Shown here one piece after another: positions 1 through 36,777 of a stretch of DNA of 64,000 nucleotides (position 1 is the first letter of the stretch; the number at the start of each line of letters is the position of its first letter). Source of the stretch: an archaeon GW2011_AR18 (GTDB lineage: Archaea; Nanobdellota; Nanobdellia; SCGC-AAA011-G17; GW2011-AR18); NCBI GenBank assembly GCA_000806155.1, contig JWKX01000006.1, positions 4,446 through 68,445 on the forward strand, given 5' to 3'. The position numbers were made by a program, and so were the translations under genes. The notes beneath the pieces were generated by a model. That model made no database searches, had not been told where the DNA came from, and saw only the letters and a program-made list of their open reading frames with translations.

Positions 1-78
1 GTATTAATAATTATAAAATTCCTCTTAAAGGTTTAGGTATTGGTAAACAGCTTCATTATCTTAAGGAGAAAACTAAAA

Positions 79-705
79 ATGTCTGATTGTAATAGTATTC
101 ATCAATTGTTTAATTCTTTTAAAAGATTTAATTTTCCTTTTGATAGTAATGATATTCCTTTTAATGGTATTTACATTATTTTTGAAAAAGGTGAAATTTC
201 TCATGGTGTTGATAGGATTGTCAGGATTGGTACTCATACTGGTAATAATCAGTTAAGATCTAGATTATTTCAGCATTTTATTAATGAGAATAAGGATAGG
301 AGTATTTTCAGGAAAAATATTGGTAGAGCTTTACTTAACCATGATAGAGATGATTTTCTTAAATTTTGGGAATTAGACTTGACTACTAGGATTGCTAAAG
401 ATAAATATTCTGATAAAATTGATTTTTCTAAACAGAAAGTTATTGAAAAAAACGTTTCTAAATATATTCAGGATAATTTTAGTTTTGTTGTATTGAAGAT
501 TGATGATAAGGATTCTCGTTTAATATTAGAATCTAAGATCATTTCAACTGTTTCTTTATGTAATGTTTGTAAACCTTCAGATATATGGCTTGGTCTTTTT
601 TCTACTAAAGAAAAGATACGTAATAGTGGTCTTTGGTTAGTTAATGAACTTTACAAATCTCCTTTAGAAGATAAAGATTTTTTAGAATTAAAAAAATTAA
701 TTTAG
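79..705 (+). CDS. GIY-YIG-like nuclease domain protein
   Basis: Motif NGIYIIF...VRIGTH...R...N resembles GIY-YIG. The ATG at 79 follows AAGGAG. The track ORF starts at an upstream TTG (40). Confidence 0.4.
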   Translation: MSDCNSIHQLFNSFKRFNFPFDSNDIPFNGIYIIFEKGEISHGVDRIVRIGTHTGNNQLRSRLFQHFINENKDRSIFRKNIGRALLNHDRDDFLKFWELDLTTRIAKDKYSDKIDFSKQKVIEKNVSKYIQDNFSFVVLKIDDKDSRLILESKIISTVSLCNVCKPSDIWLGLFSTKEKIRNSGLWLVNELYKSPLEDKDFLELKKLI

Positions 706-5369: not shown

Positions 5370-5779
5370 TAGATAGGTAAAGAATAAGCCGCCTTTTGTC
5401 AAAACCAAACAGGAAATGATGCTTTTTGAAGCTTTAATCTCCTGCGATGTTTTGTCTTAATATTCTACTAAGCGCATGTAACAAACAACTTATGGCTTTT
5501 TACAGCTTTTGTATATTCATTTCTGCTTGCACCGATCGGGTCTGCTCGTTTAATCGTTTCCTTTACCTCAAACGTTCAGCTGGTTATCTCAGTCCTGTCG
5601 CCAGAACCTTCTCAGCTTCATTACTAAATAAAGGTCGTGTCGTTTCTAAACAGTCTCCTTCCATTACTGAAACTCTATTCCTAGAGCAATCTTTTTTATT
5701 GGTGGGCGGACTTTCCTCACAAAACCAGTTAGTGTCTTTAGTTTTATCTTCAGACTCTCATTGGTTTGCGTTTATTAAG
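5370..5779 (-). ncRNA. rnpB: RNase P RNA
   Basis: Minus-strand GAGGAAAGUCCGCCCACC (CR-I/P4 5' strand) and GACAAAAGGCGGCUUAUUC (CR-IV/P4 3' strand). There is a compensatory GCC/GGC change in P4, and P1 pairs AGGUAAGG with CUUUACCU. Confidence 0.75.
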
Positions 5780-23211: not shown

Positions 23212-23493
23212 TATTTCACCTCTATTTATATTATTACTTAGAACCTTATTGTATTTAAAGTTTATTGATTATTTTGGCATTCCACAAATCTTGCATTTCT
23301 TATGGAAAAACTAGGAGCAAGTAGTTACAAAAAATAAGGTTATGTAAAATGATAAAAGATATTTATAAGGGTTAATGATGCAAAATAGTACACAACATCG
23401 TAGATATACAGTTATGCTCAATAATTTTTAGTGGCGAAATTAATACGAGAGAGACAATTCTATTCAATACGATTAAATATTAATTACAGAAAG

Positions 23494-23501
23494 TTTAAAT
23501 A
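23494..23501 (+). promoter_or_regulatory. Putative TATA box (TTTAAATA) for the DGQHR gene, leaderless spacing
   Basis: About 28 nt upstream of the ATG at 23525. Preceded by purine-rich AGAAAG. Confidence 0.25.
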
Positions 23502-23524: not shown

Positions 23525-25570
23525 ATGGATCAAGTAGAACAAAATACATCAAAAAAAAGGAGAGCAATAGATTTTGAAAAATCAATTATGAATTTTTTGA
23601 CTAAATTAGAATTTGAAGATGTTGATGGTGCCAAAGATTCATTTAAAATTAATGGAATTCAAGTAGATGTATGTGGTGGACATGAAAATACACTCTTAAT
23701 TATTGAATGCAAACATAAGGACAAAAAGAAGGTCCAAGGAGAAGATAGTATAAGAAATTATATTAAAACCTTACGAGGTGATATTCATATACTCGAGAAA
23801 GGATTTAAATCTCATCCAATTTATTCAAAGTATGAAAAATTCAAATACATAATATGTACAAAAAATTATAATATAAGAAAAGTAGATTTTGATTTTGCTA
23901 ATCAAGAGCCTCATGTTCATTTATGCAATGAAGATTTTATAAATTATTATGAAGAATTGTATCAATGTATTGGAAAATATGCAAAATATGACATGCTTGG
24001 CGAATTATGGATTAAACCAGAACAAGATGTACCAATTTTGGTGCCTGCTTTTTTGGTTACTTTTGGGCAATCTAAAATGTATAATTTTGTCATTGATCCA
24101 AAAGTACTATTAGAAGTTGCATATGTTGCAAGAAGAACCTCTAGGAGAGAAAGAAATTATCAACGAATGATAAATAAAAAGAGGATTGAATCCATTGCAC
24201 AATATATTAATGATGATAATATACTTCCTAACAATATAATTATTTCTATTAATAAAGTTAAATTTCATCCAAAAAATTCAAAATATAATCCAATTGAATT
24301 TCCCGCACTTAATATGAGCTATGGAATTTTAGAATTTCCAAATGATTATAAGAGTTGTTGGATAATTGATGGTCAACATAGACTTTATGCATTTATGAAA
24401 ACTAATAAGGAAAAATATTTCAATATGCCTGTAACTGCGTTTGAAAATCTTTCAAATGAGGAACAATGTAAATTCTTTTTAGACATAAATAAGAATCAAA
24501 AACCAGTTCCTAGTGATTTAGTTTGGGATCTAAATGGTGATATGTTAGATACCCAAACAGATGGAATAATTTCTAGAACTGTAAAAAAACTTAATAATAG
24601 TGGACCTTTATATCATATGATATACTATCCTTCATTAGGTGTGAAGACTGCTCTTCTTAAAATTTCAGGAATATGTATCAGCATTAAAAGATCAAAATTG
24701 GCAGAAACTAACACTATAAGCAAAACTGCTAATCCCTTGTATCATAAGGACTCTGATAAAACTGAAACTGCCTTATCAAATGCGTTAATTGACTATTTTG
24801 ATTTAATAAAATTGGAATTCGAAGAAAATTGGAAATTAGAAGATAAAGGGTTTATTTTAACCGATGGGGGCATGAGTGTATTTATTTATCTTTTTGAAAA
24901 AATTTTACAAAGAATTACTCTAAAAGGAAAATCACCAACAAAAGAGGAGTATAAAAAATACATATTACCTTTAAAAAAATTATTTGAGTCTGATTATTCT
25001 AGTAAAGAAGAATTAAAGAAATTGAGAGGAAGAACTTCTGGTGAAGGTCCTAAACATGATTTATTGATCGAATTTATTATTTTTATTAAAAATGAAATCA
25101 ATGATCAATTATTTGGTGGAGATATTGAAATTATTGATGAAAATTCATTTTCAGAATTAGAGAGCAATTTAAAGGAGTTAATTAATACAGTTTTATTGAA
25201 AAATATTGGTGATAATTGGTTTGAAGATTTAAAAAGCATGGATAAAGAAATGTATTCCATTGCATTAAAACATCATGAGAATCATGGTTTAAAAGACAAA
25301 AATAAAGTATATAAACAATTAACTCTTGGTAATTGTAGATCTATTATTGAGCATAAAACATATGTTGATTATTTTAAACCGTTATTTACAAAAAACGAGT
25401 ATTTTTATGATTGGAAGGAATTTGAAGGTTCATTATCACAAATTGTGCGTATGAGAAATACTCAAAAAAGTCATGATGTAGGTGTAACCAAAAAATTACA
25501 TGATGATAACATTCTAAAATTAAATTTAGATAAATTGTCTAAATGCTTAAAAGAGATAGATATAAAATAA
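23525..25570 (+). CDS. Multidomain defence-like protein: PD-(D/E)xK-like nuclease N-term, DGQHR (DndB-like) domain, C-terminal HEPN-like domain
   Basis: D48...E61-C-K63 (QVDVCGGHENTLLIIECKH). WIIDGQHRLYAF at aa 282-286 with YQRMINKKRIESIAQYI and FENLSNEEQCKFFLDINKNQKPV. C-terminal SQIVRMRNTQKSH (R-x5-H). A-ending codons on the + strand run against local bias. Confidence 0.75.
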   Translation: MDQVEQNTSKKRRAIDFEKSIMNFLTKLEFEDVDGAKDSFKINGIQVDVCGGHENTLLIIECKHKDKKKVQGEDSIRNYIKTLRGDIHILEKGFKSHPIYSKYEKFKYIICTKNYNIRKVDFDFANQEPHVHLCNEDFINYYEELYQCIGKYAKYDMLGELWIKPEQDVPILVPAFLVTFGQSKMYNFVIDPKVLLEVAYVARRTSRRERNYQRMINKKRIESIAQYINDDNILPNNIIISINKVKFHPKNSKYNPIEFPALNMSYGILEFPNDYKSCWIIDGQHRLYAFMKTNKEKYFNMPVTAFENLSNEEQCKFFLDINKNQKPVPSDLVWDLNGDMLDTQTDGIISRTVKKLNNSGPLYHMIYYPSLGVKTALLKISGICISIKRSKLAETNTISKTANPLYHKDSDKTETALSNALIDYFDLIKLEFEENWKLEDKGFILTDGGMSVFIYLFEKILQRITLKGKSPTKEEYKKYILPLKKLFESDYSSKEELKKLRGRTSGEGPKHDLLIEFIIFIKNEINDQLFGGDIEIIDENSFSELESNLKELINTVLLKNIGDNWFEDLKSMDKEMYSIALKHHENHGLKDKNKVYKQLTLGNCRSIIEHKTYVDYFKPLFTKNEYFYDWKEFEGSLSQIVRMRNTQKSHDVGVTKKLHDDNILKLNLDKLSKCLKEIDIK

Positions 25571-25711
25571 TTTTTAATAACTACTAATATATTGAATAGA
25601 ATTGTCTCCTCTGAAGTTATATTAGATTGCTCACGATGCTCGCTTGATGAACGGCGCCACTAAAAATTACTCCTCCGCTCGAGCCGAGAACATAACAGTC
25701 GTTAAATCCAA

Positions 25712-25844: not shown

Positions 25845-26042
25845 ATGGACAAAAAACATATTTCAATTCCATCAATTTTAATCATTATAGTTTCATTAAG
25901 TATAATTCTATCTGGATGTAATACGGAATATGAAACTCCATCACCAGATGAGCCCATCATAATTCCAGATGAACCAATCACACAAGCAAAAACAGAAGGA
26001 ATGTCCAATATTGTAGATGCAAATAACGAATTTGCTGTCAAA
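25845..26042 (+). pseudogene. Serpin gene 5' fragment (lipoprotein signal plus helix A), truncated by IS insertion
   Basis: Lipobox LSGC. ...ANNEFAVK then reads into the IS end. Continues in frame at 26740 (LNYYNKIKDSEENVFFSPYSISSALAM). Confidence 0.55.
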
Positions 26043-26739
26043 TGCTCGCTGACACCACCGGTGCTACACCGGATGGCTTGCTCGCCTGTTGGCTCGGTCA
26101 GCTCGCGTAGTTAAGTAAACTCATTTGTTTTTTGTCTTCTCTTTTCCCGTATTTTTGGTTTCTTATGTAACTGATTATTCTTTTCATGTCTTTCGGACTT
26201 TCTAAGTAATAGCTTGTATTCCACAAACCGCTATTCCAAAAGTATTGTTTTTTTATTTTTGGGAATTTTTGTAATAATTTTTTTGCTGTATATCCTTTTA
26301 GCATTTTTGCAACTTGAGGTCTACTGTACAATCCGATGTCAACAAGCATGTGAACATGGTTGTTGTCGAATCCTAGTTCGCTTATTTCTATATCGTATTT
26401 TCCGCATGCTTGTTGGAATAATTTTTCACAATAATTTCTTATTTGTTTGTCGTCAAATATTTTGTGGCAGTATTTTATTTTGAACATTCCGTGCATCCAA
26501 GCTTCTCCAACACAGGAACTATGTCTAGGTATCTCATTTTTCATTTTTTGTTTCCTGATGCAAAGGTTTATTAGAAAGAATATAGTTTACACTATTGCGT
26601 TGTCTTTCTAGTAGCATAGCATCAATGCTAACGCTACTATTTTATTTTTTTAAGAACAAAAACCTAACTATTTTTTTATAACTTTTACTACCACCAGTCA
26701 GCTCACTGCGGTTCGCTTATAGACTGGTGGAATTAACGA
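26043..26739 (-). mobile_element. IS200-family insertion sequence (IS200/IS605 group, tnpA only)
   Basis: 697 bp. Y1/HuH TnpA. Subterminal hairpin CCACCAGTC...GACTGGTGG at 26701-26740. GC-rich palindromic end at 26043-26110. Precisely interrupts the serpin ORF. Confidence 0.7.
26098..26544 (-). CDS. tnpA: IS200/IS605 family transposase TnpA (Y1 HuH)
   Basis: HVHMLV HuH motif. C-terminal QYFWNSGLWNTSYYLES...ISYIRNQ. Confidence 0.8.
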   Translation of the reverse strand: MKNEIPRHSSCVGEAWMHGMFKIKYCHKIFDDKQIRNYCEKLFQQACGKYDIEISELGFDNNHVHMLVDIGLYSRPQVAKMLKGYTAKKLLQKFPKIKKQYFWNSGLWNTSYYLESPKDMKRIISYIRNQKYGKREDKKQMSLLNYAS

Positions 26740-27831
26740 TTAAATTATTATAATAAAATCAAAGATAGTGAAGAAAATGTTTTCTTTTCCCCATATAGTA
26801 TCTCTTCTGCTTTAGCAATGACTTATGAAGGTGCAAAAGGTCAAACCGCAGAAGAAATTCAGTCATTATTCTATCTTCCAGAGGATGATGAATTAAGAAG
26901 AACATCCTTTGAAGAAACTAATGATGAAATCAATAAAAAAGACAAAGAATATTCACTCCATGTAGCTAATGCTTTATGGGCTCAGAAAGATTTTGAATTT
27001 AGAAAAGATTATTTTGATTTAGTAGAAAAATATTATGGCGGCTCAGCCACAAATCTTGATTTTTACAAAGACCCAGAATCATCAAGATTAGTTATAAATG
27101 ATTGGGTTGAAGAAAAAACAAATGATAAAATCAAAGATTTAATACCTCATGGTGCCATCAAAAAGATAACAAGATTAGTTCTTACAAATGCCATCTACTT
27201 TAAGGGAACATGGATTACACAATTCGATGAAGAGCAAACAAAAGATGAAGATTTTAAAGTCGGTTTTGGTAAAACTGTTAAAGTTCCTTTGATGAGCATA
27301 AAGGAAAATACATTTAATTATGCTGAAACAGATGATTTGCAAATTTTAGAACTAGATTATGAGGGAGATGAATTATCTATGCTTTTCTTGCTCCCAGATA
27401 ATATGAATTCTCTAGAGAAATCATTAACAACTGAAAAATTAGCTGAATGGAAGGATATGCTGAGAGAAAGAAGAGTCGACATTTACATACCTAAATTCAA
27501 ATTTGAAACAAAATATTTCATGGCGCAAGACCTTGTAAATATGGGAATGCCTACTGCATTTTCTGACAATGCTGACTTTACAGGCATGGAAGATAAACCC
27601 GATGAAGATCTGAAAATAGATCAAGTGATACATCAAGCATTTGTTGAAGTAAATGAAGAAGGCACTGAAGCCGCTGCTGCAACTGCTGTTATAATGGTAG
27701 GGATAACATCTGTAGGACACGCGCCAAAAATACCTATATTTAGAGCAGACCATCCATTCATATTTATAATTCAGCAAAAAGAAACTGGAAATATACTATT
27801 CTTAGGAAAAGTTAATGATCCAAATAAATAA
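26740..27831 (+). CDS. Serpin (inhibitory), body of gene lacking its native start because of IS insertion
   Basis: FFSPYSISSALAMTYEGAKG. RCL hinge EEGTEAAAATAV. C-terminal FRADHPFIFII. First in-frame ATG at 26818. Confidence 0.8.
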   Translation, partial: LNYYNKIKDSEENVFFSPYSISSALAMTYEGAKGQTAEEIQSLFYLPEDDELRRTSFEETNDEINKKDKEYSLHVANALWAQKDFEFRKDYFDLVEKYYGGSATNLDFYKDPESSRLVINDWVEEKTNDKIKDLIPHGAIKKITRLVLTNAIYFKGTWITQFDEEQTKDEDFKVGFGKTVKVPLMSIKENTFNYAETDDLQILELDYEGDELSMLFLLPDNMNSLEKSLTTEKLAEWKDMLRERRVDIYIPKFKFETKYFMAQDLVNMGMPTAFSDNADFTGMEDKPDEDLKIDQVIHQAFVEVNEEGTEAAAATAVIMVGITSVGHAPKIPIFRADHPFIFIIQQKETGNILFLGKVNDPNK

Positions 27832-35892: not shown

Positions 35893-36777
35893 ATGGTTAT
35901 ATTAAAAACTAAGGCTATTAATGGAGAAAGATACTACTATTTAGAACATTCTTATAGAGAAAACAATAAAGTCAATAAAAAAGAGGTATATCTAGGTAAG
36001 AATATTCCAGATAACATTGAAGACCTAAAAAAAGAGTTCATTGATCAGGTTTACAAAGAAAAATGGCATTCTATAATAGAAAAAATAAAGTCTAATTACT
36101 CTAAACAACTGAAAGATATGCCTGTTTCTATCAAAGAGAGAAATACTGAGTCTTTTATGGTAAAGTTTACTTATGACACTCAAAGAATTGAAGGTTCTAC
36201 ACTTTCCTTGAAAGATACTGCAAATTTATTAGAGAGAGGCATTACTCCAAGTAATAAACCTATTAATGATATTAAAGAAGCTGAAGCTCATAAGAAAGTT
36301 TTCTATGATATGATTAAATGCAAAAAAGAATTATCTTTAACATTAATCTTATATTGGCACAAGGTATTATTTGAAGATACTAAGAAAGATATTGCTGGAA
36401 TGCTAAGGAAACATCAGGTTGTTATTTCAGGAAGCAAATTCATGCCTCCATCTCCAGTTGAAGTTTATCTATTAATAACTGAGTTCTTTAAATGGTATTC
36501 TAATAATAAAAAAAAGATTCATCCAGTTGAATTAGCATCTTTAGTTCATTTGAAGTTTGTTACTATTCATCCATTTGGTGATGGTAATGGAAGGATTTCA
36601 AGATTAATGATGAATTATGTATTAAATTGTAATAAATTCCCTATGTTAGACATTCCATATGAGAATAGGAATAGTTACTATAATGCTTTAGAAAGATCAC
36701 AGACTAAAAAGTCAGACAATATATTCATTCAATGGTTCATTAAGAATTATATTAAAGAGAATAAGAGATATAATTAA
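35893..36777 (+). CDS. Fic/DOC family protein
   Basis: Fic motif HPFGDGNGRISR. Confidence 0.85.
   Translation: MVILKTKAINGERYYYLEHSYRENNKVNKKEVYLGKNIPDNIEDLKKEFIDQVYKEKWHSIIEKIKSNYSKQLKDMPVSIKERNTESFMVKFTYDTQRIEGSTLSLKDTANLLERGITPSNKPINDIKEAEAHKKVFYDMIKCKKELSLTLILYWHKVLFEDTKKDIAGMLRKHQVVISGSKFMPPSPVEVYLLITEFFKWYSNNKKKIHPVELASLVHLKFVTIHPFGDGNGRISRLMMNYVLNCNKFPMLDIPYENRNSYYNALERSQTKKSDNIFIQWFIKNYIKENKRYN

Follow-up and report, generated by a model that had tools for sequence, protein, structure and literature searches.

A 64,000-nucleotide stretch of the genome of the archaeon GW2011_AR18 (contig JWKX01000006.1; hereafter the window) carries a complete gene for a protein of 681 amino acids whose middle third resembles DndB and DpdB. 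A PADLOC search of the 65 other open reading frames (ORFs) of the window detected no dnd, dpd or ssp genes. What might such a protein do at such a place? The original prediction, which had noted the same absence, saw in it a candidate single-gene defence system made of a PD-(D/E)xK-like nuclease, a DGQHR (DndB-like) domain and a C-terminal HEPN motif, lying in a mobile, foreign island and not recognised as a described system. On profile and structure-model evidence, the three-module reading is correct. As to function, we lean, with no great firmness, towards the view that the protein is a stand-alone member of a widespread three-module family acting as the nuclease arm of a restriction-modification-like defence, and that it is partnerless here.

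The score and the signature motifs both place the central unit in the DGQHR domain family. TIGR03187 matched residues 179-448 with an E-value of 2.9e-43 (148.6 bits, for a cut-off of 58.85), and the Pfam DndB profile PF14072 matched with E = 1.9e-17 (63.8 bits, for a cut-off of 29.1). The motifs that define the domain are QR, DGQHR and FxxxN (PMC4619093). They are found as Q213-R214, D282-R286 and F318...N322 in the peptides YQRMINKKRIESIAQYI (residues 212-228), WIIDGQHRLYAF (residues 279-290) and FENLSNEEQCKFFLDINKNQKPV (residues 306-328), respectively. The conservation figures given here all come from 194 full-length relatives aligned with MAFFT; the motif residues are kept in 193-194 of these sequences, with N322 at 100%. 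C384, also in this unit, is kept in 164 of the 194.

The central 330 residues (173-506) align over the whole DndB/DpdB unit. The DpdB model NF041060 gave 103.1 bits across residues 173-484, DGQHR_dnd_1 gave 87 bits, the DndB model TIGR03233 gave 34.9 bits over residues 209-504, and the DpdB profile of PADLOC spanned residues 176-481. These matches are long, but the scores do not come near the equivalog cut-offs, which are 300, 450 and 328, respectively. Judged by these profiles, the middle third is therefore unambiguously a complete DndB/DpdB-like unit that is the orthologue of neither protein. The genomic contexts expected of the two proteins, dndCDE (and dndA) for DndB and dpdA/dpdC for DpdB, were not found in the window either. 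In public databases, relatives are called 'DGQHR domain-containing protein' or 'DNA sulfur modification protein DndB'; the latter label, which many members bear, is misleading, and the present analysis corrects this frequent misannotation. The QR, DGQHR and FxxxN motifs are invariant. An ATPase or DNA-clamp role would be expected by analogy with what has been shown or modelled for DpdB (PMC10164549). In contrast to DndB and DpdB, the window protein adds a restriction endonuclease (REase) module at its N-terminus and a catalytic-type HEPN module at its C-terminus, and its family has methyltransferases as neighbours rather than DndCDE or DpdA.

No solved structure was detectable by sequence search. 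Taken alone, the N-terminal module of the window protein gave a marginal Pfam match to Hjc (E = 0.0011). When the N-terminal modules of 33 diverse homologs were scanned separately, Hjc was found in 18, Mrr_cat in 5, Card1_endonuc in 3 and NERD in 2 (sub-threshold), all of which we take to be PD-(D/E)xK-type nuclease families. An AlphaFold2 model of the module reached a predicted local distance difference test score (pLDDT) of 93.1 and contained the alpha-beta-beta-beta-alpha-beta core fold of the PD-(D/E)xK superfamily. The window protein holds the full canonical set of active-site residues, E18, D48 and E61-C-K63, the last two elements within the peptide QVDVCGGHENTLLIIECKH (residues 46-64). 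The acidic positions are conserved in the relatives: E18 in 184 (95%), D48 in 189 (97%) and E or D at position 61 in 185 (95%). C62, the middle residue of the ExK motif (window positions 23705-23713), is kept in 188 (97%), above the lysine that follows it. Fold and motif thus both assign the module to the PD-(D/E)xK superfamily, and it is predicted to be a nuclease. The nearest known domains are the cleavage domains of FokI, BspD6I and AF1548 (Mrr-like). Unlike FokI, the window protein has no FokI-type recognition domain, and its nuclease module is N-terminal.

The C-terminal module, considered by itself, matched HEPN_Swt1 marginally (E = 0.074), its 17.5 bits lying below the Pfam gathering threshold of 27.5 for this family (PF18731). 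Among the C-terminal modules of 34 diverse homologs, HEPN_Swt1 was found in 9, all below threshold, and RiboL-PSP-HEPN in 3. The AlphaFold2 model of the module (pLDDT 90.4) displays the helical HEPN fold, for which AbiF is the closest structural match. The Rx4-6H motif is present as R644-NTQKS-H650 at the end of the peptide LSQIVRMRNTQKSH (residues 637-650). R644 is conserved in 184 relatives (95%) and H650 in 190 (98%), and the residue following the arginine is an asparagine in 85. The module can accordingly be placed in the HEPN superfamily by fold and motif and is predicted to be an RNase. AbiF itself, like AbiD a member of Abi_2, is a stand-alone toxin regulated by a noncoding RNA, whereas here the HEPN module is the C-terminal domain of a larger protein; in an Rfam scan at gathering threshold, the surroundings of the gene showed neither an abiF-type RNA nor any other regulatory RNA.

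Both terminal assignments were confirmed by the recurrence of these marginal single-sequence matches across family members and by the confident structure models. All five peptides that the original prediction quoted, as well as D48, E61, K63, R644 and H650, lie where it had placed them. Conservation across the relatives indicates strong constraint on R644 and H650 of the HEPN module and on the three acidic residues of the REase module. The putative catalytic residues proposed earlier are thus conserved in the family, K63 less so than the others.

The three-module architecture is not peculiar to this archaeon. A word-indexed search returned 235 homologs, more than 100 of them full length at 36-60% identity, and an exhaustive full-length profile search of 1.84 billion cluster representatives returned 798 with E <= 1e-30, the resulting family size of about 800 being a number of clusters at 50% identity. 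Nearly all of the best 150 of these 798 matches span profile positions ~3 to ~675 unbroken, and the architecture is therefore the rule; relatives at 25-30% identity still have the N-terminal module and the C-terminal RN..H motif. Among GTDB species representatives, 407 stretches of DNA encode relatives, in both Bacteria (WOR-3, Parcubacteria, Saccharibacteria, Dehalococcoidia, Omnitrophica, Planctomycetota, Proteobacteria and others) and Archaea (Woesearchaeota, Methanomethylicia, Thermoplasmata, Brockarchaeota, Micrarchaeota, Methanoperedens and other anaerobic methanotrophic archaea (ANME), and others). Such a scattered occurrence is what is usually seen for defence genes that spread by horizontal transfer. 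It brings the family into many uncultured lineages with few known defence systems, such as DPANN-type archaea, the candidate phyla radiation (CPR), Dehalococcoidia and relatives of methanogens and ANME. The 2.9 million viral contigs of IMG/VR contained only five distant multi-module relatives, and annotated phage and plasmid records also held distant relatives only.

The neighbours of the relatives point to DNA modification. ORFs were called at 80 genome loci and their products clustered; the conserved neighbour clusters were DNA methyltransferases (MTases) of the D12 N6-adenine, N6_N4 and C5 classes, a radical-SAM-like protein and a GHKL ATPase. An MTase, detected with hidden Markov models and motif checks and belonging to the C5, N6_N4, D12 or Eco57I-like class, was present within 2.5 kb at about 26-27 of about 85 distinct loci (about 30%); with many of the contigs being short, this figure is a minimum. 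Several of the pairs form tight two-gene operons. In four Dehalococcoidia (loci L019, L021, L024 and L029), an N6_N4 MTase gene overlaps the start of the family gene by 10-39 bp. A D12 MTase gene lies 0-25 bp downstream at nine loci, from Methanoperedens/ANME to Bradyrhizobium, and at locus L090 a C5 MTase gene ends 35-56 bp upstream. Closer to the window protein, P0068 (45% identity, in the same clade) is preceded by genes for a helix-turn-helix (HTH) protein, a protein of no assigned family, Vsr and a C5 MTase, with a gap of ~35-56 bp; P0003 (54%) is transcribed divergently from the gene of an N6_N4 MTase; the Methanomethylicia copy has a C5 MTase gene following it; and P0002 (60%) is accompanied by an EVE protein and, 1 kb downstream, an Eco57I-like MTase. 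Other close homologs are surrounded by AbiE, ParE/Phd, AAA_15/21, HEPN or prophage-like genes.

The same picture emerged from a blind census with Pfam and PADLOC of 136 neighbours located within 2.2 kb at 46 loci. MTases came first (N6_N4, 8; C5, 4), followed by DpnI (genes near two family members), BglII, Vsr, integrases and IS110 transposases. No enrichment of Dnd, Dpd or Ssp genes was observed at these 46 loci, which eliminates the outcome, foreseen in the original prediction, of an ordinary DndB; nor was a neighbour resembling tRNA-guanine transglycosylase (TGT) or DpdA found in the window or at the homolog loci. The dominance of MTases, together with other restriction, abortive-infection (Abi) and toxin-antitoxin genes, makes the defence role that had been proposed plausible.

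A distant clade shows a more elaborate arrangement, to which the phage and plasmid records led. At 16 genome loci (between L043 and L079) and on two plasmids, pNL1 from Novosphingobium aromaticivorans and one from Agrobacterium, members share a four-gene cassette encoding the REase-DGQHR-HEPN protein (~770 residues), a short DGQHR protein (~335), a radical-SAM protein (~540) and a GHKL/HSP90-like ATPase (~510). Neither the cassette nor its radical-SAM and GHKL partners are named by NCBIfam, and the cassette may represent an undescribed DNA-modification plus restriction system. MTase adjacency and the cassette make the family look like the nuclease partner of modification modules, of which the window copy would be an orphan. 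The proposal of a single-gene system does not hold for the family at large, given the MTase found beside about 30% of its genes and the cassette of the distant clade.

How does this family relate to defence enzymes already known? Its design principle is shared with SspE, GmrSD and BrxU, in which an NTPase of the ParB superfamily, bearing a DGQ(Q/H)R loop, is joined to a nuclease in one defence polypeptide that occurs alone or beside modification modules (PMC4619093, PMC10164549). In those enzymes the ParB-like NTPase is a DUF262 domain and the HNH nuclease a DUF1524 domain, whereas the ParB subfamily here is DGQHR and not DGQQR, the nucleases are PD-(D/E)xK plus HEPN and not HNH, and the domains follow another order, each end of the protein carrying a nuclease. 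Neither DUF262 nor DUF1524 matched the window protein at E <= 1, which places it outside the GmrSD/SspE/BrxU group. The fusion of these domains had been catalogued in 2013: a ParB-like COG1479/DUF262/DGQHR core was described as often fused to HNH, PD-(D/E)xK and HEPN nucleases and linked to restriction-modification (Makarova et al., PMC3632139), and a ParB fusion, Saro_3948, was listed among Swt1-like HEPN domains (Anantharaman et al., PMC3710099). Both papers give the architectures in tables, without family-level analysis. Their domain vocabulary and the predicted link to restriction-modification or Abi match the family, and for this reason the domain combination is not categorically new. The earlier statement that this is not a described system holds insofar as no experimental study was found in the literature and neither PADLOC nor NCBIfam has a model dedicated to the family; it fails with respect to these catalogues. 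Added here are the N-terminal REase module, the family size, the residue conservation and the MTase and radical-SAM contexts. Distant relatives with three modules include WP_011906619, encoded on pNL1 (locus L081); its identity with Saro_3948 could not be confirmed.

From the folds, the motifs and conserved catalytic residues, the patchy spread and the frequent operonic pairing with DNA-modification genes, we infer the remainder of a mechanism for the protein as the restriction or effector nuclease arm of a restriction-modification-like defence. FokI-type domains have a single active site each and need to pair for double-strand cleavage. By analogy with DpdB, ParB and SspE, with HEPN dimers and with this pairing, the protein would be a homodimer. 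Binding of a nucleoside triphosphate (NTP) at the DGQHR loop would clamp the dimer onto double-stranded DNA. DpdB is a homodimeric ATPase stimulated by DNA, and models show it as a clamp that encircles double-stranded DNA under the control of ATP; its DGQ(Q/H)R loop is the counterpart of the GxxR box with which ParB binds nucleotides, and SspE is a ParB-like NTPase with a fused nuclease that senses modification (PMC10164549). Dimerisation would pair the two single-site REase domains for DNA cutting, as FokI requires, and would also build a composite HEPN site for RNA cleavage, a second layer of the Abi type; HEPN RNases are dimers with a composite R...H site and R-phi-x3-H motifs (PMC12373285). 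In relatives, the adjacent MTase or radical-SAM cassette presumably marks self DNA. As no partner lies within 64 kb, the window copy would have to rely on a distant modification gene, be gated intrinsically by NTP or an invader cue, or have modified foreign DNA as its target.

A bolder version, which we put forward tentatively and think doubtful, would make the protein a self-contained, hitherto uncharacterised defence enzyme. An NTP-gated DGQHR clamp would couple a FokI-like DNase and an AbiF-like HEPN RNase, joining restriction to abortive infection, and would work with interchangeable modification modules (m5C, m4C/m6A or a radical-SAM-based mark) or alone, as here. In that case, the distant clade, with its cassette of radical-SAM, short-DGQHR and GHKL genes, would provide a novel type of partner for DNA modification. 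Should the mechanism outlined before hold, DNA-level and RNA-level immunity would be fused compactly in one polypeptide, and REase plus HEPN would be a third nuclease combination among the ParB-like NTPase-nuclease defence enzymes (GmrSD, BrxU, SspE). The pairing with several MTase classes and with the radical-SAM cassette offers a tractable model for the re-wiring of a conserved effector to different self-marks.

Several observations weigh against a nuclease arm of a restriction-modification-like defence. The ORFs of the window contain no DNA-MTase motif and show no resemblance to the MTases of the relatives; the adjacent cognate MTase of a classical Type II system is thus lacking here and is present in ~30% of relatives. 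About half of the loci have no modification gene, and the family therefore fits a classical Type II restriction enzyme poorly; at some loci, such as L090, another candidate REase is present and may already act as the partner of the MTase. No hypervariable target-recognition region appeared in the family alignment, although the partner MTases differ in class. The lysine of the ExK motif is kept in only 106 of the 194 relatives (55%), with T in 60 (31%) and C, H or R in 18, so that DNA cleavage may not be universal in the family; unlike FokI, BspD6I and AF1548, 45% of the family have this lysine replaced, mostly by T, and whether K or T is present bears no relation to the neighbouring genes (MTase, radical-SAM or none). 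In the window, the gene lies among housekeeping genes, those of the pentose-phosphate pathway, and not in a defence island, and experimental work on the family, which might support such a function, was not found in the literature.

We considered the possibility that the protein is a Type IV-like modification-dependent restriction enzyme, the DGQHR unit sensing a modification of foreign DNA, or a self mark, and licensing the nucleases. This main rival needs no cognate MTase and would therefore explain the solitary copies, seen in the window and at roughly half of the loci. It is also consistent with the invisibility of a variable target-recognition region, with the EVE-domain gene beside the 60%-identical homolog and with the DpnI genes near two members. 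Furthermore, some relatives (P0023, P0030, P0081 and P0108) have an N-terminal HARE-HTH domain (PF05066), described as recognising modified DNA (PMC10853773), and the architecture is analogous to that of SspE and GmrSD, a ParB-like NTPase plus a nuclease (PMC4619093, PMC10164549). Yet the overlapping or abutting MTase operons of several classes suggest that methylation protects from cleavage rather than attracting it, no modified-base-binding pocket was identified in the analysis, and DUF262 and DUF1524 remained without a match. Overall, we regard a Type IV-like function as unlikely, though still worth keeping in mind.

Another possibility was a protein acting first of all as a HEPN RNase of the abortive-infection or toxin type, in which the REase-fold and DGQHR modules would only sense DNA or nucleotide, without any DNA cutting. 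R644 and H650 form the best conserved catalytic pair outside the DGQHR motif, 45% of relatives have lost the lysine of ExK, AbiF is the closest structural match of the HEPN module, and AbiE and toxin-antitoxin genes occur among the neighbours. However, the 95-97% conservation of the three acidic residues of the REase fold and the 97% conservation of C62 argue for a functional metal site. PD-(D/E)xK enzymes that have no canonical lysine, such as BamHI, are active. In addition, no antitoxin-like partner was found and no abiF RNA motif was detected by Rfam at gathering threshold. A pure RNase of this kind is quite improbable.

The surroundings of the gene bear on its mobility. Upstream lie genes for transaldolase, PGI, G6PD, 6PGDH and translin, and downstream those for an IS200-type Y1 transposase, a serpin, an amidohydrolase and a transketolase (the features of the locus are collected in the table below). 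The layout of the locus and its orientation relative to transaldolase are the same in six independent assemblies, including NCBI GCA_013331775.1; five of them carry the gene with 100% identity, and the remaining one, L106, has a scaffold gap. The gene is therefore a fixed chromosomal gene and no recent arrival. The identity of the five copies leaves no polymorphism for a selection test. A 467-residue protein with 100% identity (P0001) looked like a truncated allele but was rejected as such, because the gene call at L106 2457-4522 is split by a run of N, an assembly artefact.

Table. Features of the 64-kb window and of two plasmid cassettes of relatives (window positions unless a locus is named)
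Feature	Position	Strand	Remarks
Gene of the three-module REase-DGQHR-HEPN protein, complete	23525..25570	+	from the ORF list; ATG start, 681 codons plus stop codon
Predicted PD-(D/E)xK (restriction-endonuclease fold) module, residues 12-170	23558..24034	+	motif E18 ... D48 ... E61-C62-K63
DGQHR unit (DndB/DpdB-like, ParB/Srx superfamily), residues 173-506	24041..25042	+	ParB-like core, then helical domain
DGQHR pentapeptide, D282-R286	24368-24382	+	within the ParB-like core
Predicted HEPN module, residues 531-681	25115..25567	+	R644-N-x4-H650 motif at 25454-25474
Possible archaeal TATA-like element TTTAAATA	23494..23501	+	~25 nt 5' of the ATG, inside the repeat-bounded segment; read from the sequence only
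Inverted repeat, left arm	23408..23469		blocks of 12, 17 and 19 nt; 19-nt block GAGACAATTCTATTCAATA perfect
Inverted repeat, right arm	25590..25700		three blocks in colinear order; two GC-rich insertions of 16 and 32 nt
IS200-like Y1 transposase gene	26098..26544	-	Pfam Y1_Tnp, E 1.2e-23; ~0.5 kb downstream of the DGQHR gene
Archaeal RNase P RNA	5373-5745	-	Rfam RF00373, 100 bits; shows that the host is archaeal
Four-gene cassette, plasmid pNL1	L081 5695-12193
Four-gene cassette, Agrobacterium plasmid	L082 5797-12501

These data bear on the mobile, foreign island that had been proposed. The transposase gene of the neighbouring insertion sequence (IS) is indeed there, but the proposal of a foreign island fails in the face of the pentose-phosphate neighbours, the native composition and the constant layout. 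The genome is very AT-rich (about 28% GC), and the gene has 26.2% GC. The codon wobble bias, which had been taken as a foreign sign, is a skew flip due to a plus-strand gene lying among minus-strand genes; the codon usage of the gene is typical of the window, its distance in relative synonymous codon usage (RSCU) ranking 5 of 38.

An imperfect inverted repeat (~60-110 nt), in which cores of 15 and 19 nt match perfectly, encloses both the gene and TTTAAATA, a possible promoter element judging by its sequence. Its blocks are confined to these two flanks in the whole window, where ~0.1 matches would be expected by chance. The repeat is identical in five other assemblies of the organism; in the sixth, the gap-containing L106, the right 19-nt block was not found. 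As a feature of the family it was rejected, being absent from the flanks of homologs at ~80 other loci. It could correspond to terminal repeats of a cassette, to an insertion into a palindromic element or to an invertible segment.

Could the gene then be a selfish single-gene cassette, an addiction or homing-type nuclease kept by its own mobility more than by defence? The unique repeat around gene and putative promoter, the IS200-type transposase gene 0.5 kb away, the patchy phyletic distribution and the integrase and IS genes near several relatives (Y1 transposase genes at L005, L007, L020 and L032) would fit. This idea nevertheless appears very improbable, in view of the missing repeat at the other loci, of the constant layout in six assemblies, in which no empty site, inverted variant or target-site duplication was seen, of the native codon usage, and of the small number of distant relatives in viral contigs. 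Least credible of all is an ordinary DndB/DpdB-type accessory protein or regulator of a phosphorothioate or 7-deazaguanine pathway with its partner genes elsewhere in the genome, which the DpdB, DGQHR_dnd_1 and DndB matches (103, 87 and 35 bits) and the database label 'DNA sulfur modification protein DndB' would recommend, but which is contradicted by scores far under the equivalog cut-offs, by the missing dnd, dpd and ssp genes in the window and their lack of enrichment at the 46 homolog loci, and by two additional nuclease modules with conserved catalytic residues that DndB and DpdB do not have.

Some further observations concern the window itself. GC-rich segments of the GCTCGC type (25620-25690 and 26040-26100) flank the Y1 transposase gene in a region that otherwise has 27% GC, and may be IS ends or REP-like hairpins. 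Between this gene and the amidohydrolase gene lies a full-length serpin gene (26818-27831, plus strand; Pfam E 1.3e-107). A scan of the whole window with ARAGORN revealed no tRNA genes. A Fic-domain protein with an intact HPFGDGNGR motif is encoded at 35893-36777 (plus strand); the PADLOC SoFic model matches one window ORF at 2.6e-29, the correspondence of which to the ORF at 35893-36777 was not confirmed. At the left end, a 221-residue protein (40-705, plus strand) that belongs to no Pfam family matches the PADLOC phage-defence candidate PDC-M57B with E 1.3e-98; its partner gene, if any, may be located beyond the left edge of the sequence analysed. A 36%-identical homolog of this protein is encoded at locus L017 (13188-13922), ~1.2 kb from a DGQHR-family gene.

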